A DNA stretch of 63,969 nucleotides, filler included, from an uncultured bacterium (GTDB lineage: Bacteria > Hinthialibacterota > Hinthialibacteria > Hinthialibacterales > Hinthialibacteraceae), in the NCBI GenBank assembly GCA_964449065.1. It is 3 parts of 3 records of this genome, joined end to end, with 100 filler letters (N's around TTAATTAATTAA, not from the genome) between each part and the next. Parts side by side here need not be neighbours in the genome. Positions count along the whole stretch, not along the records: positions 48,100 to 63,969 come from CAYVAZ010000096.1; 2 more parts are not named here. One strand, written 5' to 3'. Shown piece after piece: positions 11,371 to 57,986 of the stretch (its first letter is position 1; each line of letters starts with the position of its first letter). Both the position numbers and the translations under genes were made by a program. The notes under the pieces were generated by a model. That model ran no database searches. It was not told the DNA's origin and saw only the letters and a program-made list of their open reading frames with translations.

Positions 11371-11401
11371 CCTTTTCTCTCCGGGGCAATTGGGAGTGGG
11401 T

Positions 11402-13180
11402 TTAGTCATACAACGAAAAATCAGATACGGAGGATGTGACTTGTCCCTCGCCGCGTTGGAGCGTATGAATTTGATCGGCATCCAATGTGCCGAAAGATTC
11501 CACCTCTCCACCCGGCCAAACCACTTGGACATCGGCGGCATCTTGTTGAGGCCCTAGACCAAAGTGGGAGGTTAGTGAAGATTGTGAGGCAAATCCGCTG
11601 GCGCCGATTCCAACCGGGCGAGTTTGATTGGTTTCTACGGTGGAAACGTCTATGGTCGCACCCACCCCAAACACGTTCATCCCGCTTTGCCGCAGCCGGA
11701 TTTGAATCCAATGATGGTCGGAATTGCGGTTGTTGTTGCGAAACAGACGAAAAGGCCCATCCCCTTCATTTTCGGAAATCGCAAAATCCAGGTCGCCGTC
11801 GTTGTCAAAATCCGACCATGCCAAGCCGATCAAATGAGTGATGTCTGCCACACCGGTTTCAAACAAGGCATCCACATCATCTTGATTAATATTGGTAAAT
11901 GTGCCATCCCCGTTGTTTACAAAAATCGGCTGGGGTTTTTCGTAAAATTCTCCCGCATCAAAATCCGCATGGGTGGGGTGCAGAATTACATTGAGGTCTA
12001 AAAAGCCGTCGTTGTTCATGTCAATCCACCCGGCGGCAAAATCAAACTTGCCAAGCCCAAGGCCTACATCTTGCGCGACATCCGTGAATGTGCCATCTCC
12101 ATTGTTGCGGTATAAACGGGATGGAGACAATGTGCCTAGGTTTTCCGAGCCGCGGTTTAACACGAACAAGTCTAAAAATCCGTCATTGTCAAAATCCCCC
12201 CAAAGCGCGGAATGGGTGGTAGCAAAATTGGGGTCTCCCACACCGGCTTCTTCGGTGACATCGGAAAACGTGCCGTCTCCATTATTGCGAAACAAGAAGT
12301 TGTTGGTTTCGACAATGGGTTCTTCTTCGCCTTCTTCTTCGCCTTCTTCTTCGCCTTCCGCGCCGTGTCCATGTTCGTCTTCATCTTCCACCACGGCAAC
12401 GCTGAAGTAAATGTCTAAGTGGTTATCGTTGTTGTAATCGCCCCATGAGGCATGATCGATGCCGACCAAGATTTCTTCGTCGTGCCCAGGTTCATCTTCC
12501 CCGGCTTCCGGTTCTTCACCCGGTGCGTGTTCCTCTTCTTCCACTTCCAACTCCAAGTGCAGACCGGCTTCTTCAGAAACCAAGGCAAAGGTGCCGTCTC
12601 CCTGATTTTGATACAGAAGAGCGCCGTCAAACCGGTTGCTGATCATCAGGTCTAGATCGCCGTCATTGTCATAATCCGCCCAGGATGCGCTAACAGAACC
12701 GCTGATGACACCATCTTCTAAACCAGAAATTCCGGCTTCTTCGGCCACATCGGTAAAGGTTAAATCGCCGTTATTGCGAAACAAACGATTGGGGGAAGGG
12801 ACATCATCTTCCTCCGCGCGCAGGTTGGTGACAAACAGATCTAAATCGCCGTCCCCGTCATAATCGCCTAGGGCGCCGCCAAATGCCACCATTTCTTCAT
12901 CCACAATTCCGGCCGATTCAGAAATGTCTAAAAATGTATTGTCACCTTGATTTACGAACAATTGGTTTTCCGGGTCTCTTGCCACAAATAAATCATCGAA
13001 GCCGTCTCCGTTGATATCTCCCCACGCAATACCAAATTGCAAATCGAAAAGGTCCCCTTGTACTCCCGCGTCGGGAGCGATGTCTTCAAACAGGGTATCT
13101 TGAGTAAAAGCCGGGATGGAAACGGCAAAAGCGGATAATGCGAACATAAGTTTCGTAAATCGTTTTGTAAGATTTTTCAT
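11402..13180 (-). CDS. Secreted CRTAC1-like FG-GAP repeat / ASPIC-UnbV protein with His/Glu-rich inserts
   Basis: Signal peptide from MKNLTKRF; repeated D-x-D/N-x-DG-x-x-D-L motifs; HFGLG...VVWPGG ASPIC domain; ends SSVSDFSLYD. Confidence 0.88.
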   Translation of the reverse strand: MKNLTKRFTKLMFALSAFAVSIPAFTQDTLFEDIAPDAGVQGDLFDLQFGIAWGDINGDGFDDLFVARDPENQLFVNQGDNTFLDISESAGIVDEEMVAFGGALGDYDGDGDLDLFVTNLRAEEDDVPSPNRLFRNNGDLTFTDVAEEAGISGLEDGVISGSVSASWADYDNDGDLDLMISNRFDGALLYQNQGDGTFALVSEEAGLHLELEVEEEEHAPGEEPEAGEDEPGHDEEILVGIDHASWGDYNNDNHLDIYFSVAVVEDEDEHGHGAEGEEEGEEEGEEEPIVETNNFLFRNNGDGTFSDVTEEAGVGDPNFATTHSALWGDFDNDGFLDLFVLNRGSENLGTLSPSRLYRNNGDGTFTDVAQDVGLGLGKFDFAAGWIDMNNDGFLDLNVILHPTHADFDAGEFYEKPQPIFVNNGDGTFTNINQDDVDALFETGVADITHLIGLAWSDFDNDGDLDFAISENEGDGPFRLFRNNNRNSDHHWIQIRLRQSGMNVFGVGATIDVSTVETNQTRPVGIGASGFASQSSLTSHFGLGPQQDAADVQVVWPGGEVESFGTLDADQIHTLQRGEGQVTSSVSDFSLYD

Positions 13181-13273
13181 GTTTTTTTTCTCCAGTTTAT
13201 ATAAATGATGCTGTCGCATACCAGCTGGTATGCACAATGAATCATGCTATGTCATCGATTGTTTTGGTATGAC

Positions 13274-13615
13274 TTAGCAAACGGGAGGGGCGCGGCTGGA
13301 GAATCCGCCCAAGCAATGCTGCAGGGTTAGGGTTTGATATGAAAAGGTGTATGAAGGTTCAATCACTGGAAGTGTGAATGTATTTGCGTTAACGGTGACC
13401 GTATTAGACGAGTGGATGAATTCGCAGAGCAGACATTCGGCATCGAGGTGGGCGTGTTCGCCGCAGCAGGCAGGCGCTTCAATCTGGACGCCATGATCAC
13501 CGCAAGCGGCATGCGGAGCGTGGACGTGCAGCATGGACGCCATCATGACGGCGGCATATACGAAAAGTACAGCGATACTTAAATTGTGTAATTTCTTTTT
13601 TGGATAGCTTAGCAT
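13274..13615 (-). CDS. DUF2946-like His/Cys-rich membrane-targeted protein with CxxC and C-terminal RAPP
   Basis: N-terminal hydrophobic helix, HVHAPHAACGDH, CLLC, ends SSRAPPVC. Confidence 0.72.
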   Translation of the reverse strand: MLSYPKKKLHNLSIAVLFVYAAVMMASMLHVHAPHAACGDHGVQIEAPACCGEHAHLDAECLLCEFIHSSNTVTVNANTFTLPVIEPSYTFSYQTLTLQHCLGGFSSRAPPVC

Positions 13616-13694
13616 ATTGTTTTCTTAGATAAATTACGTACCATAAAAATACTAGACAAAGTTTGTCTGTCAATTGGCGAAATAGTGAATTGGT

Positions 13695-14135
13695 TCAACA
13701 GCCGTCTTCATCGCATTGCGGGCATTGTTTGCACAGATGTTGATTGGCGATGTGTGAGGAGGCGACCAATACCCCTCCTATAACAGAAGGCAGCACCTGC
13801 CAGGGGAGACCGTCTTGCGTTGCGGCGTGCAAGCTGCAGCAAGCATCGATTCCGGTTGCGGCATGGACAACCCGGTTGGTCACGAGCATAAATACACCGA
13901 ACGAAAAGAGCAGAATGGCCGTGTAATTGCGGTGTATTCGGAACCCCGTGAGCGAACCGATTCCACCTACGATTGCAGCCAACGCAATCATAAACCATTC
14001 GAAACCGCTGGTAGCCAAAAACCCGACTCCAACTAGAGGCAGTATGCCAATAGCAAACGGCATGACGCAGCAATGTACGGCGCAGAGTGATGAGGCGAAG
14101 GCGCCTGTGCGGTCGAGCCAAATTTGACTATTCAT
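13695..14135 (-). CDS. MerC-domain membrane protein
   Basis: LDRTGAFASSLCAVHCC N-terminal motif, about 4 TM helices, His/Cys-rich C-terminus. Confidence 0.85.
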   Translation of the reverse strand: MNSQIWLDRTGAFASSLCAVHCCVMPFAIGILPLVGVGFLATSGFEWFMIALAAIVGGIGSLTGFRIHRNYTAILLFSFGVFMLVTNRVVHAATGIDACCSLHAATQDGLPWQVLPSVIGGVLVASSHIANQHLCKQCPQCDEDGC

Positions 14136-38892: not shown

Positions 38893-39154
38893 TACCGTTT
38901 CAATTTAATTTTGTTTGATTCTCCCTACAAGAAACATGGTTCGTCGAAGTTGAAATCACCAACCCATTAACCCCCACCCAGCCTCCCCCATTCCAATGGG
39001 GGAGGAGTATTGTTTAATCATTATTTATTTGAATTCGTATAATTTGTGATTATTTCATACAAAAGCACGAAAAACACATCCCATCCACAATGATTTGTAT
39101 CCCAATACTAAATGACAAACACGAAATCAGTATTTCGCTAAAGTTAGGATTATT

Positions 39155-39433
39155 AATTGATGTTACGCAATCCATGATTGATGATTGCTTGAAAAATGGT
39201 TTTTGTTGTGAGCCAATTATTCTAAGTCAAACGCGGTGTCTATCGTCTTCTCCCTTTGGGAGAAGATAAGAGAAGAGGGTGATGAGAGCGATTGCTCCCC
39301 ATGACGCAGCAGCGTCATTAGAGGTTTATTCCTCCCGAACCCTCACCCGGCCTTCTCCCGGTGGGCGAGGGCGATCAATTCAGCGAACAATTGGAAAAAC
39401 GGGCATATCATAATGTGGTGCGTAACCTAAGTT
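39155..39433. mobile_element. MITE-like element, family C (AACT-A-GTTACGCA ends)
   Basis: Imperfect TIRs AATTGATGTTACGCA / TGCGTAACCTAAGTT; right ~50 bp matches 47947-47999 in reverse; internal CCCTCACCC..CTCCC hairpins. Confidence 0.6.
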
Positions 39434-39457
39434 GTTAAAATAAAAAGGTTTGCACCC

Positions 39458-43388: not shown

Positions 43389-44024
43389 TTACCCATGCGG
43401 CCAGGGCGCTCCATCCACATTCTTCACCGTACTCGCGGGTTGCCCCTCTTTAAACATTTGCACATCGCCGTTGCTGGTCAAGCCATTGGTCGCGTCAAAG
43501 CGGAACATCGCATCCGAAAACGGATAGTTCGCCATTAATGAGGTATCATCCGCGTGTTCTCTGCCGAGCGTTGAATCCGGCCCGATGCTCAGCAATATCC
43601 ATGTGGTAAATGGGAAATCGTTATAACTGTCGGCGTTATAATTCCCCGCGCCTAACTCATACAGCGCGTTGCCGAACTGGCGGTCTGTACCATCTACTTC
43701 CACATATTTCGCTTTATATGGATCAATCAAGTTCCCTCCTGTGATATAGGCAACCGGCGTGGTCATGGAAATCCAACCCGTTCGAAGACCGGTTGGGTTG
43801 GTATAACCGATATACCCTCTGCCGCCATCGGTTGGATAGGTGCCGTTATCCAATTGGTACATCTCCAACCCGGTTGAAATGCTGCGTAAATCCGCCTGCA
43901 CCCGCGCCAGCCGCGCCCGCATTTGCGCGTTGATAAAATTCGGTACCGCAATCGCCGCCAGGATACCGATAATCGCCACCACAATCAGCAACTCAATCAA
44001 CGTAAATCCTTCAATTTGTTTCAT
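43389..44024 (-). CDS. Prepilin-type (GspG-like) protein
   Basis: MKQIEGFTLIELL; MTTPVAY, SIGPD, FDATNGLTSNGDV. Confidence 0.9.
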   Translation of the reverse strand: MKQIEGFTLIELLIVVAIIGILAAIAVPNFINAQMRARLARVQADLRSISTGLEMYQLDNGTYPTDGGRGYIGYTNPTGLRTGWISMTTPVAYITGGNLIDPYKAKYVEVDGTDRQFGNALYELGAGNYNADSYNDFPFTTWILLSIGPDSTLGREHADDTSLMANYPFSDAMFRFDATNGLTSNGDVQMFKEGQPASTVKNVDGAPWPHG

Positions 44025-44224
44025 GATCCTTGCTCCCCACATTATCAAAATCAAAACGGATGATTCAATCTTCACAAATTATATCGATATTGTCAAGATA
44101 ATATTGATAGATGATTAGTTGATAAATATAGCGTAGGATCATAGCTGCAACGAAGGTATCTAAAATAATCTCTGACAGTTCTCTTGGCGAATTTTCTTGG
44201 CGAGTGTGTCATGAAGAGCAGAAT

Positions 44225-44863
44225 TCACCCGCCGCCCATCATCGCAGGTAAATCCAACTGGCCGCCAAAACGAACCATATCGCCTCTGCTTCGCAGTCCG
44301 TTGCTGGGAGTGTACAACCGTTGTTGACCGCAACCGGTGCAGTCCTTCTTCAGCATGATGTCTCCGGGATACCACACCCCGCCGGAGTCCTGCTCATCCG
44401 GTCCTTGTGATGTTAATGCAAAGGCATCCGGCAAATGCTTGGGGTCATCTACACCAAACGCGCGCAATCCGTCTTGCAACCCCCAATGTCCCCGGTAACT
44501 CACATAGACATAGGTAGGAAACGTGGCCGGGCTGTCTTTCCCCAATGTTTTGATGGGAACAAACGGGTCTTCAAAATTGAGGGACGATAAATAAGCGGTT
44601 GGTGAGGTTAATTCCAACACCGTCTTGATGTGAAATGGGATCGTGAATGCATGATTCGGTTTAGGAAACGGATAGGCCCCGCTGTCGACATAGTACATTT
44701 CTAATGCTTGGCTGATGGTTCGTAAATCGGCATGAACACGCGCTACCTTTGCCCGTGTTTGCGCGTTTAAAAAATTCGGGATGGCAATCGCCGTGAGAAT
44801 TCCAATGATGGCAACAACGATGAGCAGCTCAATAAGGGTGAATCCAGCTTGGGTTCGTAACAT
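44225..44863 (-). CDS. Prepilin-type (GspG-like) protein
   Basis: MLRTQAGFTLIELL; LTSPTAY, SQGPD, YTPSNGLRSRGDM. Confidence 0.9.
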   Translation of the reverse strand: MLRTQAGFTLIELLIVVAIIGILTAIAIPNFLNAQTRAKVARVHADLRTISQALEMYYVDSGAYPFPKPNHAFTIPFHIKTVLELTSPTAYLSSLNFEDPFVPIKTLGKDSPATFPTYVYVSYRGHWGLQDGLRAFGVDDPKHLPDAFALTSQGPDEQDSGGVWYPGDIMLKKDCTGCGQQRLYTPSNGLRSRGDMVRFGGQLDLPAMMGGG

Positions 44864-44879
44864 GATTGTATGATCATAT

Positions 44880-45452
44880 CTACTGAGATAGAAGAATGGA
44901 ACCCGGCGTAAATTTATAAATATCCCCCGCCGAGACAACCCCATTGCTGGCGTGATACGCCAATACGCCGGTCGGTGGTGAACCGCCGATATCTTCCAGT
45001 TGATCCGGCCCGCGGCTTACGGTCAGCATAAAGGTGCCACGCTGAACCGCCTCGGTAACAGGGGCACCGCCCCAATTCGAACCGGCTTGCCGTACTTGAT
45101 GCACATTCCAGCCGGGATAGAAGTCTTCATGTCCGCCGGCAAAGCGGTGCGCTTCCTTGCCTTTTTCCAGCGTAAAGCCGTCTTTGGGGATATTGCTCAA
45201 ATACGCTATCGGCGTGGTCAGGGCAGGGTAGATAAAAACCGAATACCACTGATTGCCGCCGAAATATGGATACGCATTGTTATCCAAGTTGTAGGAGATA
45301 AATCCTTTTGAGAGCGCATCCATATCGGAATAACTGCGCGCAATTTTCGCTTTAATTTGGGCGTTGATAAAGTTCGGTACAGCAATCGCCGCCAAAATCC
45401 CGATAATCGCTACCACAATCAATAATTCGATGAGAGTAAACCCGTTCCGCAT
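44880..45452 (-). CDS. Prepilin-type (GspG-like) protein
   Basis: MRNGFTLIELL; LTTPIAY, SRGPD, YHASNGVVSAGDI. Confidence 0.9.
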   Translation of the reverse strand: MRNGFTLIELLIVVAIIGILAAIAVPNFINAQIKAKIARSYSDMDALSKGFISYNLDNNAYPYFGGNQWYSVFIYPALTTPIAYLSNIPKDGFTLEKGKEAHRFAGGHEDFYPGWNVHQVRQAGSNWGGAPVTEAVQRGTFMLTVSRGPDQLEDIGGSPPTGVLAYHASNGVVSAGDIYKFTPGSILLSQ

Positions 45453-45516: not shown

Positions 45517-46524
45517 TTACCGCCCCATTTTTTTGAGGGCGTTAAGGATGGAAAAATATCCCCGCCCCAATTCAAGCGAGAGCGTATCGATGGTCTTCCG
45601 TTTCTTCTTGGTTTGCCCAAACAATTCATCATACCGTTTTACTAGATGATCATAATCTTCGGGCGTCCAGGGTTTTCCTTGGTTGGTGAGATGATTATCT
45701 TCCGGAATGGGGAGGGTATCCATTAAATAGCCGGGGGCAATTTTTAGCATTTCATTCATACCATGCTCATACACCTTTTCATTAATCTCAAACCCACATG
45801 CTTTACGGTTGAGCCCTACAGCCGCTTTTGCAGTTGAAAACCCACCCAAAAACAAATCGCAAACCGTATCGCCTTCGTTGCTGCTATACAGAATCATCTT
45901 CTTGAGCAGCTCCATCGGCAATTCGTTTTTGTTTTTGGCTTTGCCCGGTTTGTATTCGCGGTTGATGATCCACACATCCTCCCGGTCGCGGTAATTTTTG
46001 GCCTCACCTTGATCGCCCTTTTCGGTTTTTCCAAACCGCGAATAGGTGTTAAACGTAACCGGGCCGCCGGGGCTGGTGCAATACAATATATGGTAATGAG
46101 AGGTGATGTATTTTTTGGTGGTATACACGCCGAAGTTGTACTTCCAGATGATGTGGTTGACCAAATTGAAACCGAGTTCATCAATCGCGATAAGAATATC
46201 TTTCAAATTGCTGTGGCCGGATACAGCGTACATCGATCCCCCCGGCCGCAGGATTCGCTTGGCTTCCTTCATCCACTGCCGCGTGAATTCCGGATACTTA
46301 TGCAGCGGGATTTCATTGTAGCCTTCGATGACATGCTTCTCATCGCGGTTGTAGTGTTTGTGCAGTTGGTCGCCGTTGATCCCATAAGGAGGGTCGGTGA
46401 TAATCAGATCAATAGAACTGTCAAGGATATGCTGAGGGCACTCTATAATACAACTACCGTTTATGAACAAAGGTTCTTTACGCTTTAGCAGACTTTTATT
46501 TGAAGATGGATAGTGTTTTTTCAT
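45517..46524 (-). CDS. Orphan N4/N6 DNA methyltransferase (beta-class motif order)
   Basis: DPPY precedes DLFLGGFST; no restriction endonuclease adjacent. Confidence 0.88.
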   Translation of the reverse strand: MKKHYPSSNKSLLKRKEPLFINGSCIIECPQHILDSSIDLIITDPPYGINGDQLHKHYNRDEKHVIEGYNEIPLHKYPEFTRQWMKEAKRILRPGGSMYAVSGHSNLKDILIAIDELGFNLVNHIIWKYNFGVYTTKKYITSHYHILYCTSPGGPVTFNTYSRFGKTEKGDQGEAKNYRDREDVWIINREYKPGKAKNKNELPMELLKKMILYSSNEGDTVCDLFLGGFSTAKAAVGLNRKACGFEINEKVYEHGMNEMLKIAPGYLMDTLPIPEDNHLTNQGKPWTPEDYDHLVKRYDELFGQTKKKRKTIDTLSLELGRGYFSILNALKKMGR

Positions 46525-47999: not shown

Positions 48000-48099
48000 N
48001 NNNNNNNNNNNNNNNNNNNNNNNNNNNNNNNNNNNNNNNNNNNTTAATTAATTAANNNNNNNNNNNNNNNNNNNNNNNNNNNNNNNNNNNNNNNNNNNN
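48000..48099. other. Artificial contig-joining linker
   Basis: N-run with a central TTAATTAATTAA. Confidence 0.97.
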
Positions 48100-49003
48100 T
48101 AAGAATATCTTGGCTGGTGTCGCGAACGTCTAATGAGAAATCAACTTGGCCGGGAACGGTGTTGGTTGTGCCGGGAGTGAGTTCTACTTTCCCAATGGTG
48201 GTGACGCTGTGATCGCTGCCGTGTTCTTCCAGGATGCGCTCGATTTCCTGCGCGAATTCGGCAAGACCGTTGAAGGCATCTTTGCGCATGTTCATGGGGG
48301 TGGTTCCGGCGTGGTCGGCGGCGCCGATGAGGCGGGCTCTCCAGGTGAATAAGCCGGTGATTTCGGATACGATGCCGATGGGGATATGTTTCGCGTCCAA
48401 GACTGGCCCTTGTTCGATGTGCAATTCTAAAAACGCGTACAAGGAATCCGGGGTGCGTCTGGCTTTTAAGGCATCCATGGGTTCCATGCCGTGGCGTTTC
48501 ATTTCATCGGCGCGGCGGATACCGTTTAAGTCGATGGCATTGTGAATGGAATCGGGTGTGATTTCCCCGCAGAGGGCTTGCGAACCGAAGAGTCCGCCAA
48601 AGCGGCCTTCTTCATCGCTGAAGGAGACCATCTCGACAGGGTATTTGGTTTGGATGTTTTCTTCTTTAATGCGGCGGACGCATTCTAATGCACAGAGAAC
48701 TCCTAACGAGCCGTCCAAATGTCCCGCGTGCGGTACGGTATCGGTATGGGAGCCCAATAAAACAGCCGGGGAATGATCTTTCTTATGGTTGACTCTGCCG
48801 AAGACGTTGGCGGCGCCGTCCATCCAGGTTTCTAAACCGGCTTGACGAAGGCGGTCTTGCAGCCAGCGGCGGGCCTGCATATCCGCATCGGTAAAGCCCA
48901 TACGGTTGATGCCGATGTCTTCGCCGCGGCCAATTTGGGAGAGGTCTTCGATATCCTTGCGCAGACGTTCGAAGTTGATTTCCAGTTTGGGATTGGTGCT
49001 CAT
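48100..49003 (-). CDS. Zn-dependent N-carbamoyl-L-amino-acid/allantoate amidohydrolase (M20), 3'-truncated by the gap
   Basis: GSHTDTVP, DGSLG, DEEGRF, ELHIEQGPVL, HAGTTPM. Confidence 0.92.
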
Positions 49004-49256
49004 GATTTGTTATACTCTTTCCAATAATGAATTGATGACAAAAGCAGAATAAACTGTTCGCTTTCGCGTTCGGTTCGATTGGTGGGCTGCCCTTCCCGTG
49101 GCTGCCTTTTTGTGGGGTAACCACTGGGGGTTGCTCCTACAAAATAAACGATGGAGTAACACACTTTCTTTTTGCAACCTGGTATTCGGCCATTTGACCG
49201 AGAACAAAAACCGTATGTTAGCAGCAATCAATCGTCAATTGTGTGACATTACATCC

Positions 49257-49365
49257 TAGTACTCCGTCAATCAAAAAATGGCGGCTGGCTATCCGTTGTT
49301 TCCCCCCTTGTTAAGGGGGGCTAGGGGGGATCGATACCCGTCAATAAATCGTTGACACTGTACTA
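49257..49365. mobile_element. MITE-like element with TAGTAC-nnn-GTCAA ends carrying a family A hairpin
   Basis: TAGTACTCCGTCAA ... TTGACACTGTACTA; right end coincides with the TAG stop of the asnB-like gene. Confidence 0.6.
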
Positions 49366-51321
49366 AGGCATTAAACCGACTCCTTGAATATAGTTTTGAT
49401 GCAGCACATGCAGGCAGAGCAAGTGATTCAGCAATGCGTCTTTTCTGGTTAAAGAGACGGGATCGGTATCTTCCTTGTATTCTGTTAAGAAGGAGTTGAG
49501 CCGTTTGGTATCGAACAATCCGGCTTTTTCGATTTCTTGGTCGTTCATGTGGGTGTTGATGAGATCGTTTACCGCGTCTTGCTTTTTCGTTTCCGTGTGT
49601 CCCGGCGGGGCCATGAAGGCGAATTTTTCGCGTTTGTAGAGCACTTCCGGGAGGATGTGTTTCATGGCTTCGCGCAGCACCCACTTTTCGACATCGCCGC
49701 GGATGCGGACTTTTGGGGGAATGTTTGCCGCTACCTCAGCGACTTTATGATCGAGAAAGGCAGGGCGTGATTCCATGGAGTTGGCCATGTCAACGCGGTC
49801 GCCGCCCCAGTTGAGGATTTGGCATTCAAGCATGGTTTTGATCCAGGTGTATTGGGCGATATCGAGCGGGTGTTTGCCTTTGACCATGTTTTCGTCGAAA
49901 GAACCAGCGATGGCTTCGATGGGATCGTAGTCTTTGATTTCGGCCAGAATATCGTCATGGAGCAATGGCCGTGCGATTTCGAGCGACTGCATCCAGGGTT
50001 GCAGCCAGGATGGGGTGAAACCGCATTTGGCATCCATGGCGGCGTGGTGGACTTGGTCTTCGGCCAGGATGGCACCGCGGAAGAGGCGGTTGCTTTCTTC
50101 CATTTTCTTTTGATAGTCGAGCGTTTCATCGCCGGTTAAGCCGTGTAAGAACATATCGCGTTTAAGCGCGGGGTAACCGCCGAAGAGTTCGTCCGATCCT
50201 TCTCCGGTGACGACGACTTTATAGCCGCTTTCATTCACGCGGCGGCTCATGCACATTTTGGCGACGCCGAGGGTGTTGTAGAACGTCCGTTCGGCGTGCC
50301 AGACGGTTTTGCGGTAGTTGTCGCCGTAAAGGCTGACGGCATCCAAGTTAAGAATTTCTTGGTCGGCCTTGACCTTTTGCGCCATTTCAGTAGCAATGGC
50401 GGCTTCGTCATAAGACTCATGATCGAAGCTGATGGTGTAGGCTTTGACCGGCGATTGCTGTACGGCTGCCGCCAGGCCGAGCATGGAGCAACTGTCGATA
50501 CCGCCGGAGAGGTAACAGCCGACGGGGACATCCGCTTCCAGGCGAAACATGACAGATTCGAGCAGGATATCTTTCACCTGTTCGATGTAGTGTTCATCGG
50601 AGTGTTCGCCGTCTTTGTCGTGTTCGTCGGGGAACTCCATATCCCAATAGCGGTGTTCGCTGATGTCAAAGCCATTGCCATTGCGTTTGATGACCATCAT
50701 GTGCCCCGGCTGGAGGGCGTGAATGTCTTTGAAGGCGCTGGTACCGGGGACCATGGTGTGCATCATTTGATGAAGGACGGCTTGTGGATCGAATTCTTTA
50801 GGAACATCGGGATTTGCAAACAATGCTTTGATTTCGGAGCCGTAATAGACGGTGCCGTTGCTGATGTGATAGAACATCGGGCGGATGCCAAAACGGTCAC
50901 GAACGAGGATGAGTTTGTCTTCGTTTTGATCGTACAGCGCAAAGGCGAACTCACCGCGCAGGTGTTCGACGAAATCGAGCCCGTGTTTTTGGTAAAGATA
51001 GAGGGCGATTTCGCTGTCGGATTTGCAAACGAATTCTTGGCCTTCACAAATAAAGTTGGCGCGGATGCGTTTGTAATCGTAAAACTCTCCGTTCACGGTC
51101 AGCACCAGTTTTTTGTCTTTGGTTAACAACGGTTGGTGGCCGGTTTCGAGATCAATGATGGAAAGACGGGAGTGTCCCATCGCCAAACCTTGTTGCTGGT
51201 CGAGGTGGTAGCCGTAGCCGTCGGGGCCGCGGTGTTCCAGTTTATGCGTCATTTTTTCCAGTGTTAGTTTCGCGTCTTCGGGTAAGCCTTTTGCAGACCA
51301 AAAGCCTGTGATACCGCACAT
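49363..51321 (-). CDS. Asparagine synthase-like glutamine amidotransferase
   Basis: N-terminal Cys (MCGI), HRGPD, NGEFY, RDRFG, SGGIDS, GEGSDE; substrate may not be aspartate. Confidence 0.92.
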   Translation of the reverse strand: MCGITGFWSAKGLPEDAKLTLEKMTHKLEHRGPDGYGYHLDQQQGLAMGHSRLSIIDLETGHQPLLTKDKKLVLTVNGEFYDYKRIRANFICEGQEFVCKSDSEIALYLYQKHGLDFVEHLRGEFAFALYDQNEDKLILVRDRFGIRPMFYHISNGTVYYGSEIKALFANPDVPKEFDPQAVLHQMMHTMVPGTSAFKDIHALQPGHMMVIKRNGNGFDISEHRYWDMEFPDEHDKDGEHSDEHYIEQVKDILLESVMFRLEADVPVGCYLSGGIDSCSMLGLAAAVQQSPVKAYTISFDHESYDEAAIATEMAQKVKADQEILNLDAVSLYGDNYRKTVWHAERTFYNTLGVAKMCMSRRVNESGYKVVVTGEGSDELFGGYPALKRDMFLHGLTGDETLDYQKKMEESNRLFRGAILAEDQVHHAAMDAKCGFTPSWLQPWMQSLEIARPLLHDDILAEIKDYDPIEAIAGSFDENMVKGKHPLDIAQYTWIKTMLECQILNWGGDRVDMANSMESRPAFLDHKVAEVAANIPPKVRIRGDVEKWVLREAMKHILPEVLYKREKFAFMAPPGHTETKKQDAVNDLINTHMNDQEIEKAGLFDTKRLNSFLTEYKEDTDPVSLTRKDALLNHLLCLHVLHQNYIQGVGLMP

Positions 51322-51366
51322 ATCAGTTCTCCTTTATTGAAACAGCACGTTATTGAACAGAATTCG

Positions 51367-52449
51367 TTATCGGACCGGGACATCTTGCGGCAAACGGTCG
51401 AACCGGTTCAGGATGGAGATCAACAATGCCTGCCGGATAAACACCGCGCCGTGGGCTTGGGTAAAGTATAAATTGTGGTCGGTGTTGTCTAAAGATGTGC
51501 TGAGTTCATCTAACCGGGCAAGGGGATGAAGCACCACCGCATCCTTTTTTAATTTGGAATCTTTATTGAGCTTATATCTGTGATCCAGCGCTTTGTAGCT
51601 ATCACCGAGAAAGGCAATCGAATTCATGTAAATCACATCTAAATCAGATAGAACATCGTTAATGTCATTGGTGATGTAGTAGTCTATACCGGTGGCGTCT
51701 AAATCTACTTTGACATCTTGACCTAAAGGATCGGCCATTTCGGATACAATGGAAATTTTTTTGATGGAATCTTTGAACAAGAACGAATAGAGTAAGAAAC
51801 TTTTTACGGCTCTCATACTTCCGGGGGTGCCTAAGATTCCTAAATGGATTTTTTGGTTTTCTGGAAGGCCTTCGGCTATTTTGGGGTTCCATTTGAGGAT
51901 GGCGTACCAATCGGCTAACCCCTGGGTTGGATGTTCGCCGGAGCCGTTACCGGCATTGACGAGAGGCAGTTGCAACTTTTCACGGATTTGATCGACGGAT
52001 TCAGTTATGGTGTTGCGCATGATGACCATATCGCCATAGGCATTGAACATTTCCCCGATATCCGCGAGGGATTCTCCTTTGGCTTGCCCGGTGGTTTTGC
52101 CGTCCGCAATGCTAATGATTTTTCCGTCCAAACGTAAGACGGCGCTTTCAAAGGAAAGGCGGGTGCGCGTGCTGGCTTCGAAGAAGGCGGTGATGATCAG
52201 TTTTCCGTCTAACGGATGGCTTTCGGAGATTTCGGTTGCTTCCAATAACGCGGCAAACTTGCAGAGTTCCAGTACCATTTCGCGGTCAAACTGTTTGGCC
52301 GATATGACAGACTGACCGATTAGTTTTTGAAGAATATCCAGTTTGATATTTGCTTTAGCAATCAGGTTTTCGGGGTCCGGGTATAGACCTTCCGAATCGC
52401 CGGGTTTGTATTCGACTTCTTGGTTTATTTTGTTTTCATCGAGTTTCAT
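51367..52449 (-). CDS. Aspartate/ornithine carbamoyltransferase family protein (non-canonical)
   Basis: FFEASTRTRLSFE, HPTQ, HPLAR; lacks the PyrB R-x-Q motif (has YMNSIAF). Confidence 0.9.
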   Translation of the reverse strand: MKLDENKINQEVEYKPGDSEGLYPDPENLIAKANIKLDILQKLIGQSVISAKQFDREMVLELCKFAALLEATEISESHPLDGKLIITAFFEASTRTRLSFESAVLRLDGKIISIADGKTTGQAKGESLADIGEMFNAYGDMVIMRNTITESVDQIREKLQLPLVNAGNGSGEHPTQGLADWYAILKWNPKIAEGLPENQKIHLGILGTPGSMRAVKSFLLYSFLFKDSIKKISIVSEMADPLGQDVKVDLDATGIDYYITNDINDVLSDLDVIYMNSIAFLGDSYKALDHRYKLNKDSKLKKDAVVLHPLARLDELSTSLDNTDHNLYFTQAHGAVFIRQALLISILNRFDRLPQDVPVR

Positions 52450-52549
52450 TTTGATTTACCGTAAATTCTCGAGTTTCGTTTGTGGTTGTGATATTTTTCT
52501 GATGCTGTGCAAACGTCTTGCCTATACAAAAAGAAGGTATGATCACTTC

Positions 52550-52678
52550 TTACCAAATATTTTTACTTTTGTAGTCACGCCAAAGTAAGAACATTAAAAA
52601 AAGCGAGCCCAATCCTGTCATGATTAAGGCACCGTAGACAAACACGTATAGGGTGAAAGATGGAAACAGTACAACCAT
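52550..52678 (-). CDS. 42-aa single-TM protein
   Basis: GGAG RBS, ATG 2 nt after the symporter stop; MVVLFPSFTLYVFVYGALIMTGLGSLFLMFLLWRDYKSKNIW. Confidence 0.7.
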   Translation of the reverse strand: MVVLFPSFTLYVFVYGALIMTGLGSLFLMFLLWRDYKSKNIW

Positions 52679-52680
52679 AA

Positions 52681-54123
52681 TTATGCTCCTTCCAATTCCG
52701 GATTGGCTTCGTTCAGCGCGTTCCAATCGTAATTTTCGGGGAATACTTTGGCCGCGATGATGACAATGACCATGGATGTTGCCGCGCCGATTAAGGAGGC
52801 GGTGTACCATCCCCAATTGAAATAGGCTAAGAGTCCGATCCCGCTGCCGCCTGCCATACCGAAGATGGCACCCCAGCGGCTGGCACTTTTCCAATAGAGT
52901 CCGGCGGCGATGGGCCAGATGGTGCTGCCGACCATGGGGCCGGCGAAGAAAAGAACGGTGGCTAGGGTTCCGATGCGGGGCATGCAGACCGCCCAAGCGG
53001 CAAGACCTAAGCCGATAATGATGACGGCTGACATGCGGCGGAGGTGTTGTTCACCCGCGCCTGGATGGATAAGTTTTCGGTAGACGTCTTCTGTGATTAA
53101 GTCGGCGGTGGCGGCTAAGAGGCTGTCGATGCTGGATGCCAGAGAGCAGAAGAACACGGCGAACACAATGATGGACCCGATCTTCCCCAATACATTGGCG
53201 GCGACCATGGGACCGATCATATCCGGGCTGGTCACGTTTACGCCGAGTGTGTCTCCAGCCAAGGCGATAAAGCCCGCGGCGATAGGGACGGGAAGCCACA
53301 AGACACCGGCGAGCAAATAGGCTCTTTGCCCAATGCCTTCGCGCATGGCGAAGGCGCGGCTCCACCATACATTGCTGTGGAAGATTTCACCCATACCGAA
53401 CAGCAGGTTATTGAATACGGAGATCAGCGCAGCAGGCATAAGGACATTGATGAGCATCGGGCGCTGTTCTTCTAGGTTCCCATACACCGTTTCAAATTCC
53501 GCTTGGGTTAACACCCCGATGCCTACAATCACGATGCCGATCAGAATAATGAGGGATTGAATATAATCGGTACCGATCACAGCGTATAAACCGCCGAAAA
53601 GGGTATAGACGACACATACGAACAGAATAATGCTCATCCCCATTTGATAGGGGATACCGGCGAGGGCGTACATTAAGATGCCGCCGGCCATTCCCATGCT
53701 AATGAGCCAGGTAAAGCCATAAAAGATAGAAATAAGCAGGAAAATGTACCAGGCAAGGTTGCCGTAGCGCAGGCGGATAAAATCGCCGCTGGTGTAGCCG
53801 GAAGGCATTAAGCGGCGGATACGTTTGGCTAACGGGGCGAATAGAAATAAACCGAATGAGGCGGTCGAGTAGGCGACCATCCCCCATATACCGAGTTCTA
53901 GGGCGAACTGGGGGGCGAGCATGGTGGTGTTGGAGGTGATCCATGTGGCCATGGCGGTGGCGGTTCCAAGCGCCAGACCTACATTGCGCCCGGCGAGCAT
54001 GAAACCTTCCATGCTTTTGGCTTTTTTGCCCCAATAGACACCGAGAGCGATCCAGATCACCCCTAGCAGGGCGACCAGAATCCATCCAGTCGTTGTATTG
54101 AGTATCTCGGATTGATGAGGCAA
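52681..54123 (-). CDS. Sodium:solute symporter (SSS; DUR3/PutP-like)
   Basis: FMLAGRNVG, ATW, YTLFGGLYAVIGTDYIQ, SSIDSLL; about 13 TM helices. Confidence 0.92.
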   Translation of the reverse strand: MPHQSEILNTTTGWILVALLGVIWIALGVYWGKKAKSMEGFMLAGRNVGLALGTATAMATWITSNTTMLAPQFALELGIWGMVAYSTASFGLFLFAPLAKRIRRLMPSGYTSGDFIRLRYGNLAWYIFLLISIFYGFTWLISMGMAGGILMYALAGIPYQMGMSIILFVCVVYTLFGGLYAVIGTDYIQSLIILIGIVIVGIGVLTQAEFETVYGNLEEQRPMLINVLMPAALISVFNNLLFGMGEIFHSNVWWSRAFAMREGIGQRAYLLAGVLWLPVPIAAGFIALAGDTLGVNVTSPDMIGPMVAANVLGKIGSIIVFAVFFCSLASSIDSLLAATADLITEDVYRKLIHPGAGEQHLRRMSAVIIIGLGLAAWAVCMPRIGTLATVLFFAGPMVGSTIWPIAAGLYWKSASRWGAIFGMAGGSGIGLLAYFNWGWYTASLIGAATSMVIVIIAAKVFPENYDWNALNEANPELEGA

Positions 54124-54144
54124 GATAGGCTCCTTATAAAGGGA

Positions 54145-54687
54145 TTATGATTGGGATGGTTGTGAGTTGGCTTTCATCGTCATTGTGCCGTGAATGATAA
54201 CGCTAACGGTCGCGATAAATACCAATGCGCCTACAACCATGAGTGTGATTGCGAGTTGGATTGAATGGTGTTGGACTTTGAGCGTAATTGTTTCTGACCA
54301 AGCGCTGGTGTTTCCGGTCTCGGTATTGGAAGTACGAATGCGGTAGTAATACGTTCCATTAGGCAGGCCGGAAATGTAGCTGGCGGTATCCGGTCCTTTG
54401 TATTTTAAAAGTGGGTCGGAAAACTCTTTTGTTTCGGATTGTTGGAGTTCAAATTGAATGTGTTCTGGAATGGATTTGTAATCCGGATGCGACCAAGCAA
54501 GCCGTATATAACCGGAATCGGATGTTAATGCCAAGCCGGTGTCAAATTTCGGAGTAGAGGTAGAGTTCTGTGGAGAATCAGCGGAGTTTGATTCCAGACT
54601 AACCAGGAGCGGCAAACACAACATGCTCCAAAAAATCAACAAAGATGAGAGTGTTTTACACTTCGGGAAACAATTCATAATATCCAA
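54145..54687 (-). CDS. Exported FN3-like protein with a C-terminal membrane anchor
   Basis: Signal peptide, LAW...ISGLPNGTYYYRIR...SAWS, C-terminal TM helix. Confidence 0.75.
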   Translation of the reverse strand: MDIMNCFPKCKTLSSLLIFWSMLCLPLLVSLESNSADSPQNSTSTPKFDTGLALTSDSGYIRLAWSHPDYKSIPEHIQFELQQSETKEFSDPLLKYKGPDTASYISGLPNGTYYYRIRTSNTETGNTSAWSETITLKVQHHSIQLAITLMVVGALVFIATVSVIIHGTMTMKANSQPSQS

Positions 54688-54815: not shown

Positions 54816-55616
54816 ATGCAGGAACAAATTCAATCCATCATCCAAACTGCGGATCAAATTGAAGGCCATCTTTCGTACAAAGAAATGGAATTTTTGGCGA
54901 TTAATGCGGCGGTTCCGACAGCAAAAGGCTGTGTGTTAGAAATCGGCAGTTACAAAGGAAAATCCACTTATCTAATAGCGGAAGCATCTAAGTTGGCAGG
55001 GGATGACCGGATCGTAGCGGTTGATCCGTTGACAACAGAGTCGCTGGCAGATCATTATTTGAAAGGCGATGTGGATGAAGTGGAATTTCAGCATGATTTC
55101 TTTAAAAACTTAGAACAATTCCACATCCGTGAGCGGGTAGAGTTTTTTCAGATGTATTCTTATGAGATGGTAAAGACGTTTCAAGGGAGCATTCGTTTTT
55201 TGTGGATTGACGGAGATCATACGTATGAGGGGGTAAAGCGGGATGTTGCATTGTTTACCCCTTTTTTGTCAGATGGGGCGATTATTGCAATGCATGATGT
55301 TTTGCACAATTTAGATGGGCCGGTTCGCTGTTTTAACGAAGATGTATTGCAGTCGCCTAATTTTGGGCGGGCTGGATTGTGCGGTTCGATTGGATGGGGG
55401 CGGTATCATTCGGATGTAAAAGTAAATGAAGTGTACTTGAAAGAAAAAGAGGAACTGCACCAAAAATTAACAGAATTGATACCGTTTTCAACCCAAGGAA
55501 AGAATCAATCGAAGTGGAATGCCATGAAATATAAATGGTACCGTACACAAGTCCCGCATGGGAGGATTTCGTTGGAGGAGTGGCGGAAGATGATTGAACA
55601 ATTGGAATGTTTATGA
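54816..55616 (+). CDS. Class I SAM-dependent methyltransferase (Methyltransf_24-like)
   Basis: LEIGSYKGKST, WIDGDHTYEGV, MHD. Confidence 0.88.
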   Translation: MQEQIQSIIQTADQIEGHLSYKEMEFLAINAAVPTAKGCVLEIGSYKGKSTYLIAEASKLAGDDRIVAVDPLTTESLADHYLKGDVDEVEFQHDFFKNLEQFHIRERVEFFQMYSYEMVKTFQGSIRFLWIDGDHTYEGVKRDVALFTPFLSDGAIIAMHDVLHNLDGPVRCFNEDVLQSPNFGRAGLCGSIGWGRYHSDVKVNEVYLKEKEELHQKLTELIPFSTQGKNQSKWNAMKYKWYRTQVPHGRISLEEWRKMIEQLECL

Positions 55617-56454: not shown

Positions 56455-56536
56455 TGACTTTCCCCTTGTTTTCAGCATACGGCAATTGGTTTTGCCGATT
56501 TAATTTTGTAACGATAGCACAAATTTATTTGCCAGT

Positions 56537-56830
56537 TTAGTTGCTGGATTCATGCAATATTTTTTGGAAGTCATCTATCGATTTAACTTTTAACGCTTGC
56601 ACCCGAAGTTTTCTGATTCTTTCAATGTCTTTAATTTCTTCAATTCCGTTTAATACAGAAGTAGGAATTTCTCCATACATGACAGATATATTATCCAGCA
56701 GAGAGGATTTTGCTTCCGCAAGACTACCTTCCTGTCTACCTTCTTGTCTACCTTCCTGTCTACCTTCCTGTCTACCTACTTCTTTACCTTTTTCCATGGC
56801 GATTTCTTCAAAGGGAGCGATGAACGGCAT
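56537..56830 (-). CDS. Stand-alone copy of the Rpn C-terminal module (Rpn-S-like, 97 aa)
   Basis: AGGAGG-8nt-ATG, MPFIAPFEEIAMEKG, (GRQE)x4; part of a ~410-bp duplication of the rpn 3' end (56537-56942). Confidence 0.72.
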   Translation of the reverse strand: MPFIAPFEEIAMEKGKEVGRQEGRQEGRQEGRQEGSLAEAKSSLLDNISVMYGEIPTSVLNGIEEIKDIERIRKLRVQALKVKSIDDFQKILHESSN

Positions 56831-56945
56831 TTTCTTTTCCTCCTGGTATCTTTGAATATTGTGAAGATACGTTTCTTCTAATTCTTTGGGCAGTCTCATC
56901 ATCCCATCTATAAACCGAAAGAGATTGACCGCATCATTTTCTGGT

Positions 56946-57986
56946 TTAATTGCCGGATTCATTCAGTATTTGTTGGAATTCATCTATCGATTTAACTTTT
57001 AACGCTTGCACCCGAAGTTTTCTGATTCTTTCAATGTCTTTAATTTCTTCAATTCCGTTTAATACAGAAGTAGGAATTTCTCCATACATGACAGATATAT
57101 TATCCAGCAGAGAGGATTTTGCTTCCGCAAGACTACCTTCCTGTCTGCCTTCCTGTCTACCTTCCTGTCTACCTTCCTGTCTACCTTCCTGTCTACCTTC
57201 CTGTCTACCTACTTCTTTACCTTTTTCCATGGCGATTTCTTCAAAGGGAGCGATGAACGGCATTTTCTTTTCCTCCTGGTATCTTTGAATATTGTGAAGA
57301 TACGTTTCTTCTAATTCTTTGGGCAGTCTCATCATGGCATCAATAAACCGAAAGAGATTTACTGCATCCTTTTCTGCCATACCTTGTTCGAGCATTTCTT
57401 TGGTGATGGTTTCTTTATACTGAAACCGAAGTTGTGAATCGCGTTTTGATTGCAAAGTTCTGAGGTGCGCGATTACGAAAAATGAAAAGGGATTCCGGCT
57501 TTGTTTTAATTCTTCGATTCGGTCTTGAAAATCCAATAGTTTTACGGTTGGAAATTTAAAAACCGATTCGCATCCCCAAACGCTGCTTTGATATTTTTCC
57601 GGCCTCCAATTGGGATTGTCGTCTCCCAATACCGCAAAGGTCATCAGCGGTGATTTTTGCTTGGATACCAATTTGCAGTAATAATGATACAAGCGTTCCG
57701 GTAACGTTATATCATACTGGGATTGAATTTCGATATGGATATACACCCAGGTTGCAATCCCGCTTTTTCGGAATACTTTAATGAGTTTGTCGACAAAGCG
57801 TTTTCCGGGTTTTTCTCCTTGGACAATTTCCCGAAGTTCCTGCTCGTGTGATTCGTAATTTTTGCTCCAATCGATATCTGTATAGACATCCGGTAGAAAC
57901 AATTGGATAAATTCCGGAAGAAACAGGTCTAAGATTTCTTTCCAGGTGTTGTCAAAATCAGCTGGTTCGTTCTTGTAATCTACCAT
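56946..57986 (-). CDS. Rpn/YadD-like PD-(D/E)XK nuclease (putative transposase family)
   Basis: DFDNTWKE, FVDKL, HIEIQSQ, NPFS, (GRQE)x6 tail; internal AGGAGG plus ATG at 57263. Confidence 0.9.
   Translation of the reverse strand: MVDYKNEPADFDNTWKEILDLFLPEFIQLFLPDVYTDIDWSKNYESHEQELREIVQGEKPGKRFVDKLIKVFRKSGIATWVYIHIEIQSQYDITLPERLYHYYCKLVSKQKSPLMTFAVLGDDNPNWRPEKYQSSVWGCESVFKFPTVKLLDFQDRIEELKQSRNPFSFFVIAHLRTLQSKRDSQLRFQYKETITKEMLEQGMAEKDAVNLFRFIDAMMRLPKELEETYLHNIQRYQEEKKMPFIAPFEEIAMEKGKEVGRQEGRQEGRQEGRQEGRQEGRQEGSLAEAKSSLLDNISVMYGEIPTSVLNGIEEIKDIERIRKLRVQALKVKSIDEFQQILNESGN
57134..57209. repeat. 12-bp coding tandem repeat (GRQE x6; x4 in the copy at about 56725-56776)
   Basis: CCTTCCTGTCTA units. 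Confidence 0.9.

Follow-up and report, generated by a model that had tools for sequence, protein, structure and literature searches.

Gene content of the locus

The window, meaning the whole stretch of DNA that was analysed (63,969 nucleotides), consists of contigs C30, C31 and C96 joined from the 87% complete genome of an uncultured member of the Hinthialibacterota (G000; GCA_964449065.1). Six co-directional genes, all listed in an earlier note on this DNA, were confirmed on the minus strand of C96. These encode an FN3-fold protein (54145-54687), an SSS symporter (52681-54123; PF00474), a 42-aa single-TM peptide from a small ORF (52550-52678), a carbamoyltransferase (51367-52449; PF02729 and PF00185), an AsnB-like amidotransferase (49363-51321; PF00733 and GATase) and an M20 N-carbamoyl-L-amino-acid amidohydrolase (48100-49003; PF01546), which is cut by the contig end. 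The REP-like spacer between the last two genes (49004-49362) is filled by two short repeats; these gave 209 blastn matches in 150 contigs of the genome, a genome-wide occurrence showing that they are not operon-specific.

The earlier note also held that further genes had been lost in a gap. The gap is the artificial linker between C31 and C96 (48000-48099, two 44-N runs flanking a 12-base spacer) and not an interruption within the operon, but missing genes were indeed found on contig C507, which carries the C-terminal third of the hydrolase (3-302) and an isochorismatase-like amidase gene (380-1084). C96 and C507 share no overlap; the complementary coverage of the hydrolase (homologue residues 9-305 and 319-418) and the gene order in homologous loci suggest that C507 continues C96. 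The six-gene inventory stands. Absent from it were the amidase, as a second hydrolase, and a MarR regulator, and it did not recognise that the modules for synthesis, uptake and breakdown can be separated. The genes are probably under MarR control; the MarR gene itself is not adjacent to them in the window genome, where a 55%-identical copy lies on contig C22.

Promoter and terminator scans gave 5 and 9 candidates, against 7.4 and 8.4 in shuffled sequences, and were not above background, and no Rfam match was found between 48100 and 56000. The divergent methyltransferase gene at 54816-55616 is not kept beside homologous loci. A search of sequencing runs returned two DNA matches labelled microbial mat metagenome, both from one study that may be the origin of this DNA, and no RNA run among those listed.

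All 63 loci selected by the carbamoyltransferase contain the amidotransferase, 61 contain the symporter and 56 the FN3 gene, so that the grouping exceeds chance. No other conserved gene cluster was found in these loci, and a gene for an Ngg acetyltransferase or ligase is not adjacent in the window. Among 41 related genomes, five have both enzymes, 35 have neither and one has the amidotransferase alone, at a contig edge. Pairwise identities of the two enzymes are correlated (Spearman 0.87, from 1378 non-independent pairs).

Carbamoyltransferase and amidotransferase

The carbamoyltransferase has the ATCase fold (TM 0.75) and about 30% identity to PyrB, but none of the 17 NCBIfam models that it matched gave a score reaching the cut-off (177 bits against 237 for TIGR00670 and 166 against 263 for NF002032). 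Like PyrB, it keeps the carbamoyl-phosphate site, with S52-T53-R54-T55, K84, R105, H134 and Q137 each present in 408/408 family sequences, as well as R167 (407/408). The residues R229, Q231, E233/R234, D162 and P268 of PyrB are missing from the family: R229 and P268 occur in none of the 408 sequences, Q231 in at most four (A in 371, S in 17, T in 16), and the E233/R234 loop is deleted, being gapped in 166/166 alignment rows. Among 19 PyrB-like controls, R229 was kept in 18, Q231 in 17 and P268 in 19. In ATCase, R229 and Q231, with E233, are the residues that we take to bind the aspartate beta-carboxylate, and the orientation of R229 into the active site is set by E233. The family has instead invariant N, M, P and G at 228, 166, 163 and 80, with T228 replaced by N in 407/408 sequences.

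A standard ATCase was rejected for this gene, as R229 is missing throughout and the genome has its own canonical PyrB (contig C356) and ArgF (contig C95), with which this separate clade coexists. Mapping of the predicted pocket shows that aspartate recognition has been lost, and does not thereby identify the side chain that is bound. The enzyme is proposed to be an L-glutamine N-alpha-carbamoyltransferase. A plasmid search returned just PyrB/ArgF matches of about 30-35% identity among 30 of 122 records listed, and the ESM Atlas just the proteins' own clusters, unnamed or named as ATCase.

The amidotransferase passed the asparagine synthase model TIGR01536 (406 bits, cut-off 267) and fell below the AsnO model TIGR03104 (300 bits, cut-off 570), as did its homologue at locus L158 described below, and below PRK09431 for AsnB (282, cut-off 499). 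No AsnO above cut-off was found in the window genome. With AsnB and its best PDB match, the hydroxyamidotransferase 7ylz, it shares the Ntn glutaminase Cys, the SGGIDS loop, the GEGSDE motif and the catalytic Lys. The catalytic Cys, E374, D377, E378 and K566 (equivalent to Cys1, E364/D367/E368 and K466) are each present in 53/53 amidotransferases. The AsnB family model and these catalytic residues are common to amidotransferases that do not make asparagine.

It is also set apart from AsnB by its tie to the carbamoyltransferase and by a family-specific LxWGG motif (53/53), which reads LxWGGDR in the region of D400/R403 of asparagine synthetase (ASNS). These two residues are replaced by L503/G506 in 53/53 sequences, as mapped by ungapped extension with an uncertain register. 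The enzyme retains the acidic cluster used by human ASNS to bind the free amino group. We propose that this is an ATP-dependent enzyme amidating an alpha-carboxylate, in a role like that of AsnO.

The database names, the ATCase fold and the TIGR01536 score would fit spare copies, that is, an additional aspartate carbamoyltransferase plus an asparagine synthetase beside a urea or amino-acid importer. This is barely credible in view of the lost R229, P268 and E233/R234 loop, the scores below ATCase cut-offs next to a canonical PyrB, the replaced ASNS residues, and a symporter that lacks two residues needed for urea transport (see below); moreover, no urease was found in the window genome at its 87% completeness.

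Transport and hydrolysis genes

The best PDB match of the symporter was the urea transporter DUR3 (E 1.6e-31), followed by the next family at 3.2e-10. Of nine positions of the DUR3 urea site, four are identical (W93, T98, Y117 and W338), one is conservative (Y315 as Trp) and four are replaced by smaller residues, with W95, Q124, N305 and Y461 becoming T, G, G and L. In DUR3, alanine mutants of W95 and Y461 lose urea transport. The proton-coupling residues D312 and E402 of DUR3 are not kept either, and the symporter differs further in having two conserved small partner genes. From these residues, it is probably a DUR3-type protein with an enlarged ureido pocket, acting as a Na+-coupled importer of an N-carbamoyl solute.

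The earlier call of an FN3 membrane protein was borne out despite the lack of a Pfam match. The AlphaFold model (pLDDT 86) found an FN3 domain as its best Foldseek match (E 2.7e-6), and most top matches were FN3 or cytokine-receptor domains. The protein has an N-terminal signal or TM segment and a C-terminal TM helix, and its likely start is the ATG at 54678, giving 177 aa. Its gene moves with the symporter in three of four genomes with a relocated transporter, and this exported protein is a probable accessory subunit of the symporter. The 42-aa peptide ends in D-x6-W, and every one of 37 aligned copies has D35 and W42. Candidate small TM ORFs lie between symporter and transferase in 58/61 homologous loci, and the peptide gene stays with the FN3 and SSS genes in 3/4 relocated transporters; it probably encodes a small subunit of the symporter.

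The M20 protein passed TIGR01879 (269 bits, cut-off 204), the hydantoinase/carbamoylase family that it shares with the L-N-carbamoylase 3n5f and the N-carbamyl-L-glutamate amidohydrolase ErtE. A full-length homologue was closest to 3n5f (E 3e-86). Full-length hydrolases also passed the allantoate-amidohydrolase subfamily model, but scored only 382-387 where the ErtE cut-off is 520, and fell far short of the BiuH and RutB cut-offs. The amidase shares the isochorismatase fold with the cysteine hydrolases of biuret, triuret and N-carbamoylsarcosine. M20 genes were found in 13/43 loci of the window clade, and one 96% complete carrier lacks the hydrolases; these are dispensable. Three apparent M20 members (loci L016, L019 and L040) were discarded as clustering artefacts.

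A DUR3-like importer with M20 and isochorismatase-like hydrolases, the former passing the allantoate-amidohydrolase model, could also belong to a catabolic ureide pathway, in which an imported carbamoyl compound is phosphorolysed to carbamoyl phosphate as by the catabolic ornithine and putrescine transcarbamylases. Such a pathway is very unlikely, as carbamate kinase is absent from all five carrier genomes tested and from the conserved neighbours, and the invariant partner of the transferase is an ATP-consuming, amide-forming enzyme and not a hydrolase.

Distribution and a candidate route to N-carbamoyl-glutamine amide

The compound N-carbamoyl-glutamine amide (CGA), isolated in 1991, is a documented compatible solute, described from one organism only (PMC3857566). 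Searches of PMC open-licence papers and bioRxiv main texts for CGA or this gene set gave reviews that mention the solute and papers on other subjects, with no gene assignment for CGA. Ectothiorhodospira marismortui, where the earlier note had proposed looking for the cluster, is also called E. mobilis, and three proteins with the latter name are family members with the same transferase signature; presence is thus confirmed at the level of the species. The matching loci L158 and L159, which encode identical proteins, have the order MarR-M20-amidase-transferase-amidotransferase, and their four-enzyme operon adjoins sucrose synthase.

Within the order of these loci, the transferase was present in 49/55 genomes and in 11/11 pufLM phototrophs, ten of which have sucrose synthase adjoining the locus. 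In one phototroph (G456) the transferase copy looks split, and in another (G499) the genes are scattered. Five tested phototrophs have three OTCace-family genes each and no carbamoyltransferase of the CmcH/NodU type, which, within the two families searched, leaves the transferase paralogue as the spare carbamoylating enzyme. The same five carry a true AsnO (TIGR03104 above cut-off) besides the cluster, which gives them another amidating enzyme.

Across the class, the transferase was found in 24/400 sampled Gammaproteobacteria. A pufLM search of the same scope detected nine phototrophs in 400 genomes, only one with the transferase, which shows that carriage of the genes is not a general trait of purple bacteria; around genomes G164 and G068, searches of the family and order gave no phototrophs. 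Database searches returned 1193 and 1939 matches to the family, many named 'aspartate carbamoyltransferase'.

In a quick tree, the window and E. mobilis proteins form one clade (SH-aLRT 99; 44-47% identity), within which a long branch separates the window clade from the gammaproteobacterial clade. This branch, the residues that differ between the two at 162, 165, 168 and 229 (S/A at 229, S/R/K at 165), a pocket mapping that leaves the side chain undefined, and the report of CGA from a single organism would all allow the same chemistry on another acceptor, at least in the window clade. The acceptor could be asparagine, alanine, serine, or glutamate with both carboxylates amidated, and CGA would then be made by the Ectothiorhodospira clade only, or by none. 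We regard either outcome as unlikely, though deserving serious consideration. N276, I278, M212, P209, R213 and HPLAR are near-invariant in both clades, suggesting one substrate; the producer species has the family and, within the families searched, no further spare carbamoyltransferase; and the mapped pocket positions have gained no invariant basic residue that would bind a glutamate side chain.

Overall, the likeliest role of the cluster is the synthesis, re-import and breakdown of a nitrogen-rich molecule for salt protection, which, judging from the encoded proteins, is probably CGA. By analogy with the NAGGN pathway, L-glutamine would be N-carbamoylated and then alpha-amidated, a reading to which we give a probability of about 0.6. 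The DUR3-like importer and the sucrose synthase, MscS or BCCT neighbours count for it. Counting against it are the wide occurrence of the transferase beside a solute reported from one organism, the 44-47% identity and the differing pocket positions between the clades, the true AsnO of the five phototrophs, the TIGR01536 score and retained acidic cluster of the amidotransferase, the lack of osmoregulation-related neighbours in the window clade, carriers that seem not to be salt-dwellers, the allantoate-amidohydrolase match of the hydrolases, and the split and scattered phototroph copies. Part of what the earlier note had suggested, carbamoylation followed by amidation, is supported by the failed ATCase active-site test, the separate PyrB and ArgF, the co-occurrence and correlated identities of the two enzymes, and the presence of the family in the producer species, where carbamoylase, amidase and MarR genes share the operon.

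In the proposed route, the ATCase paralogue, whose fold and carbamoyl-phosphate site are observed, would carbamoylate the alpha-amine of L-glutamine. The Arg167 equivalent would hold the free alpha-carboxylate, and the neutral side chain would lie in the pocket that lacks Arg229/Gln231 and has gained an invariant Asn. The AsnB-like enzyme, of which the class is established, would then adenylate the alpha-carboxylate of this presumed substrate and amidate it with glutamine-derived ammonia, much as AsnO acts in NAGGN synthesis. Recapture of the ureido solute may fall to the DUR3-like symporter, aided by the FN3 and 42-aa partners. For breakdown, the isochorismatase-like hydrolase could take off the 1-amide, after which the M20 enzyme would free glutamine, CO2 and NH3.

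The NAGGN system (asnO-ngg, peptidase PA3461 and MarR PA3458; PMC8070244) likewise combines an N-capping enzyme with an AsnB-like amidotransferase acting on a terminal carboxylate; a hydrolase belongs to it as well, and in many cases a regulator of the MarR type. The cap differs: the ATCase-fold enzyme of the cluster would add a carbamoyl group, and the GNAT/ATP-grasp protein Ngg of NAGGN adds an acetyl group. The cluster also has no dipeptide ligase, and adds a three-gene importer and two ureido/amide hydrolases.

With four N per six C, CGA or a similar N-carbamoyl amide could serve mainly in nitrogen storage or exchange and not in osmoprotection. The dedicated two-step hydrolysis and an importer like a urea transporter would suit this role, and amtB-like genes (judged from N-terminal sequence only) are found close to some gammaproteobacterial loci. 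Carriers include taxa that we presume to be from freshwater or soil, and we take Haliscomenobacter, Thiothrix nivea and Anseongella not to be salt-dwellers. Osmoregulation-related neighbours were found in 0/43 window-clade loci; where such neighbours do occur, with MscS or BCCT genes near some loci, they are mostly in one order and so not independent. Reichenbachiella is a carrier within the window clade, and the cultured carriers include Reichenbachiella faecimaris, Flavilitoribacter nigricans, Kangiella, Thioalkalivibrio and Nitrosococcus oceani. A primary role in nitrogen storage is nonetheless improbable, given that CGA is a documented compatible solute and that the hydrolases are dispensable; BCCT betaine transporters, moreover, occur in 10/20 carriers and 11/60 non-carriers, although genome size and kinship confound this comparison. 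Together with taxon names, it gives only weak backing to an enrichment in saline habitats.

If the CGA reading is true, two genes become assignable to the synthesis of a solute with one known producer and no gene assignment in the papers searched. Ectothiorhodosinus mongolicus, E. magna and Thiorhodospira sibirica, which are said to have no annotated osmolyte synthesis (PMC7824335), would gain a candidate osmolyte route, as proteins named for all three belong to the transferase family. A further substrate specificity would be added to the ATCase family and a ligand to the DUR3-like bacterial transporters, and well over a thousand database proteins would be mis-annotated as 'aspartate carbamoyltransferase'. 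More tentatively, at somewhat short of even odds, CGA may be made by an ATCase-derived L-glutamine N-carbamoyltransferase in no fewer than eight phylum-level groups and in some 6% of the Gammaproteobacteria sampled, and could be an overlooked, nitrogen-rich osmolyte of wide occurrence that is also exchanged as organic nitrogen within marine and hypersaline communities.

Gene order and conservation of the module

The six co-directional genes described in the earlier note are all present in the window, every one on the minus strand. They are ORFs encoding an FN3-type protein (54145-54687), an SSS symporter (52681-54123), a 42-aa TM peptide (52550-52678), a carbamoyltransferase (51367-52449), an AsnB-like amidotransferase (49363-51321) and an M20 carbamoylase running from 49003 off the end of the contig; the symporter, both enzymes and the carbamoylase were also recovered by family search. 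The earlier note suggested that further genes had been lost in a gap; the window consists of three contigs with N-linkers between them, so 48000-48099 is a contig end. The hydrolase is split, with homologue residues 9-305 on contig C96 and 319-418 on contig C507 of the same genome, where an isochorismatase-like gene was also found and no additional co-directional long ORF was detected beyond it. We infer that C96 adjoins C507, the two contigs being without overlap.

The hydrolase is preceded by a 359-base spacer (49004-49362) that is filled by two short genome-wide, REP-like repeats, with ~25 copies at offsets 80-190 and ~170 at 240-350 (209 matches on 150 contigs). A MarR gene unlinked to the operon (contig C22, 19308-19796) has 55% identity to the operon-linked regulator of locus L001. 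Elsewhere in the window, a ~290-base repeat (39150-39440; 260 matches across 200 contigs, frequently near their ends) is possibly a MITE-like element. A direct duplication at 56535-57376 (433 bases, 91% identity) extends over the end of a 346-aa ORF that carries short tandem repeats and has only a weak Pfam match, to Yae1_N; it resembles an Rpn/ISNCY-type gene end. Three consecutive prepilin-type N-methylation genes (43389-45452), two of them T2SS-G-like, adjoin an N6/N4 DNA methylase (45517-46524).

A scan of GTDB species genomes yielded 43 loci of the window's clade, with record titles naming Bacteroidota, Ignavibacteria, Calditrichota, KSB1, Zixibacteria/GN15, Verrucomicrobiota, Planctomycetota, Myxococcota and Gammaproteobacteria. 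Adding 20 of the 24 gammaproteobacterial carriers (genomes with the transferase) gave 63 loci, every one selected by the transferase and many cut by contig ends. The amidotransferase was found in all 63, the symporter in 61 and the FN3 gene in 56, while a small TM ORF lies between symporter and transferase in 58 of 61. The M20 hydrolase is present in 33 loci (13/43 in the window clade, 12 of them confirmed by blastp, and 20/20 gammaproteobacterial), and the amidase and MarR genes in 29/63 each. Hydrolases are located elsewhere in genomes G003 and G021 and were not found in G018, which is 96% complete. Synthesis, uptake and breakdown are thus separable modules. Five of 41 window-related genomes contain both enzymes, 35 neither and one the amidotransferase alone, at a contig edge; in a second order, the amidotransferase occurred without the transferase in one of five transferase-negative genomes tested. 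In the Flavilitoribacter nigricans locus (L040), a 970-aa ORF without Pfam match (11052-13964) separates transferase and amidotransferase; its relatives are directly downstream, on the opposite strand, in the Bacteroidota loci L016 and L019.

Active sites of the two enzymes

The transferase has an ATCase fold and scored under the cut-off of all 17 NCBIfam models touched. In 408 distinct full-length family sequences, which are not independent because they were collected by similarity to members, residues of the carbamoyl-phosphate site are invariant (408/408) and R167 (ATCase numbering) is kept in 407, while R229 and P268 occur in none, Q231 in at most four, and T228 is replaced by Asn in 407; the E233/R234 loop is deleted in 166/166 rows. 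Nineteen PyrB-like controls had R229 in 18, Q231 in 17 and P268 in all 19. Canonical PyrB and ArgF are encoded separately in the genome. Judged by its residues, the transferase is not PyrB. In ATCase, R167 binds the alpha-carboxylate of aspartate, and R229 and Q231 the beta-carboxylate. According to an excerpt of PMC6056424, both arginines line the active site. The acceptor would be an L-amino acid whose alpha-carboxylate is free and whose side chain is neutral, and therefore the order would be fixed: the transferase would carbamoylate the amino acid, and the amidotransferase would then amidate the carbamoylated product. Glutamine fits as a candidate acceptor.

Six further diverged ~357-aa homologues (P0136, P0140, P0145, P0153, P0157 and P0158) are without the STRT, KGE and HPLAR motifs, form long branches near the gammaproteobacterial clade and are probably catalytically dead or repurposed paralogues. 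Four basal family members (P0123, P0125, P0126 and P0128, one named Actinophytocola) share the lost R229/Q231 and HPLAR, and differ in pocket residues.

In 53/53 copies of the amidotransferase, the catalytic Cys, E/D/E cluster and Lys are all retained, and the protein passes the asparagine-synthase model while failing the AsnO model. Such an acidic cluster is apparently general across the amidotransferase family. D400 and R403, conserved in ASNS, correspond to L503 and G506 within a family-specific LxWGG motif, with the register set by ungapped extension. The equivalent cluster of human ASNS serves as the binding site for the free amino group (excerpt of PMC6748925), which, the generality of the motif aside, counts against an N-blocked substrate. 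The evidence is mixed, leaning towards a substrate other than free aspartate.

Transport and hydrolysis

Among solved structures, the symporter matches the urea transporter DUR3 best (E 1.6e-31, compared with 3.2e-10 for the family in second place). Nine urea-site residues, taken from an excerpt of PMC11840088 and mapped by pairwise alignment, were scored in 58 homologues, one of them an unrelated SSS protein. W93, T98, Y117 and W338 (DUR3 numbering) are kept in 55-58 of 58, Y315 is Trp in the symporter, and W95, Q124, N305 and Y461 are replaced by T, G, G and L, in 57/58 each. Neither of the proton-coupling residues, D312 and E402, is retained. By this alignment, a substituted urea would fit as a ligand better than urea. 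No urease was found in the window's genome, which is 87% complete. The FN3 fold is backed by a structure model. Of four phototroph (pufLM-bearing) genomes with the symporter apart from the enzymes, three have the FN3 and small TM genes relocated together with it. The relocated unit is divergent and near a TrkH potassium transporter in L169 (7251-8699), L170 (7573-9051) and L171 (9008-10486), with a Pfam check of that neighbourhood in L169 only of the three.

The M20 hydrolase is nearest to L-N-carbamoylase, its full-length copies passing the allantoate-amidohydrolase subfamily model and missing the ErtE cut-off, and the amidase is nearest to biuret/triuret/N-carbamoylsarcosine cysteine hydrolases. 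A catabolic pathway instead of synthesis is unlikely, as none of five carriers tested has a carbamate kinase.

The CGA producer and the osmolyte reading

N-carbamoyl-L-glutamine 1-amide (CGA) is accumulated by Ectothiorhodospira marismortui, a synonym of E. mobilis (excerpt of PMC1224877). The earlier note's proposed check in this organism gave a species-level match: three NCBI-named E. mobilis proteins belong to the family, with 44-47% identity to the window transferase and an identical signature, and group with it in a single clade of a quick tree (SH-aLRT 99). The proteins of loci L158 and L159 are identical, with the gene order MarR, M20, amidase, transferase, amidotransferase; in 5/5 genomes of this kind the symporter orthologue is located elsewhere. 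The transferase was detected in 49 of 55 genomes of the order to which these belong, including 11/11 with pufLM, a sample biased by starting at a carrier, versus 24 of 400 sampled Gammaproteobacteria (counting the centre genome and the unpublished G305, with one genome unscored). Genes are scattered in G499, and the transferase appears split in G456. In each of five phototrophs tested, three genes of the OTCace family were found and none for an enzyme of the CmcH/NodU type.

Sucrose synthase adjoins the locus in 10/11 phototrophs, and MscS or BCCT genes are near seven loci, six within the order of those phototrophs; such osmoregulation neighbours occur in 0/43 window-clade loci and are essentially a feature of one lineage. 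BCCT transporters were found in 10/20 carriers versus 11/60 non-carriers (Fisher p 0.0085). This association is weak, since four carriers were left out (G305 plus three closely related ones), the non-carrier genomes are generally smaller, and related genomes do not count as independent. Most named carriers come from marine, soda-lake or brine habitats, though some live in freshwater or soil. An excerpt of PMC3857566 describes CGA as a minor solute of one organism only, undetected by Raman spectroscopy. Ectothiorhodosinus mongolicus and Thiorhodospira sibirica, for both of which named proteins belong to the transferase family, are given in part of PMC7824335 as without betaine or ectoine synthesis, with CGA as a possible solute.

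The module resembles the pathway of the osmolyte NAGGN, as outlined in an excerpt of PMC8070244, in the amine cap, carboxylate amidation, hydrolase and MarR regulator. In contrast, it is without Ngg and its amidotransferase fails the AsnO model, so it is not a NAGGN member. AsnO is above the TIGR03104 cut-off in all five phototrophs scored (G452, G453, G455, G166 and G499), which therefore may make NAGGN as well. These AsnO genes count against the CGA reading, as do the restriction of the osmoregulation neighbours to essentially one lineage, the description of CGA from one organism only, and the irregular G499 and G456 loci.

No publication assigning CGA genes or describing the cluster was found among open-licence PMC papers and bioRxiv. 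The module is real, widely conserved and uncharacterised. It very probably makes some N-carbamoyl amino-acid amide, taking together three readings that share this chemistry, and the best single reading, at a probability of about 0.6, is that CGA is made as an osmolyte. A question standing since 1991 is now testable with two genes.
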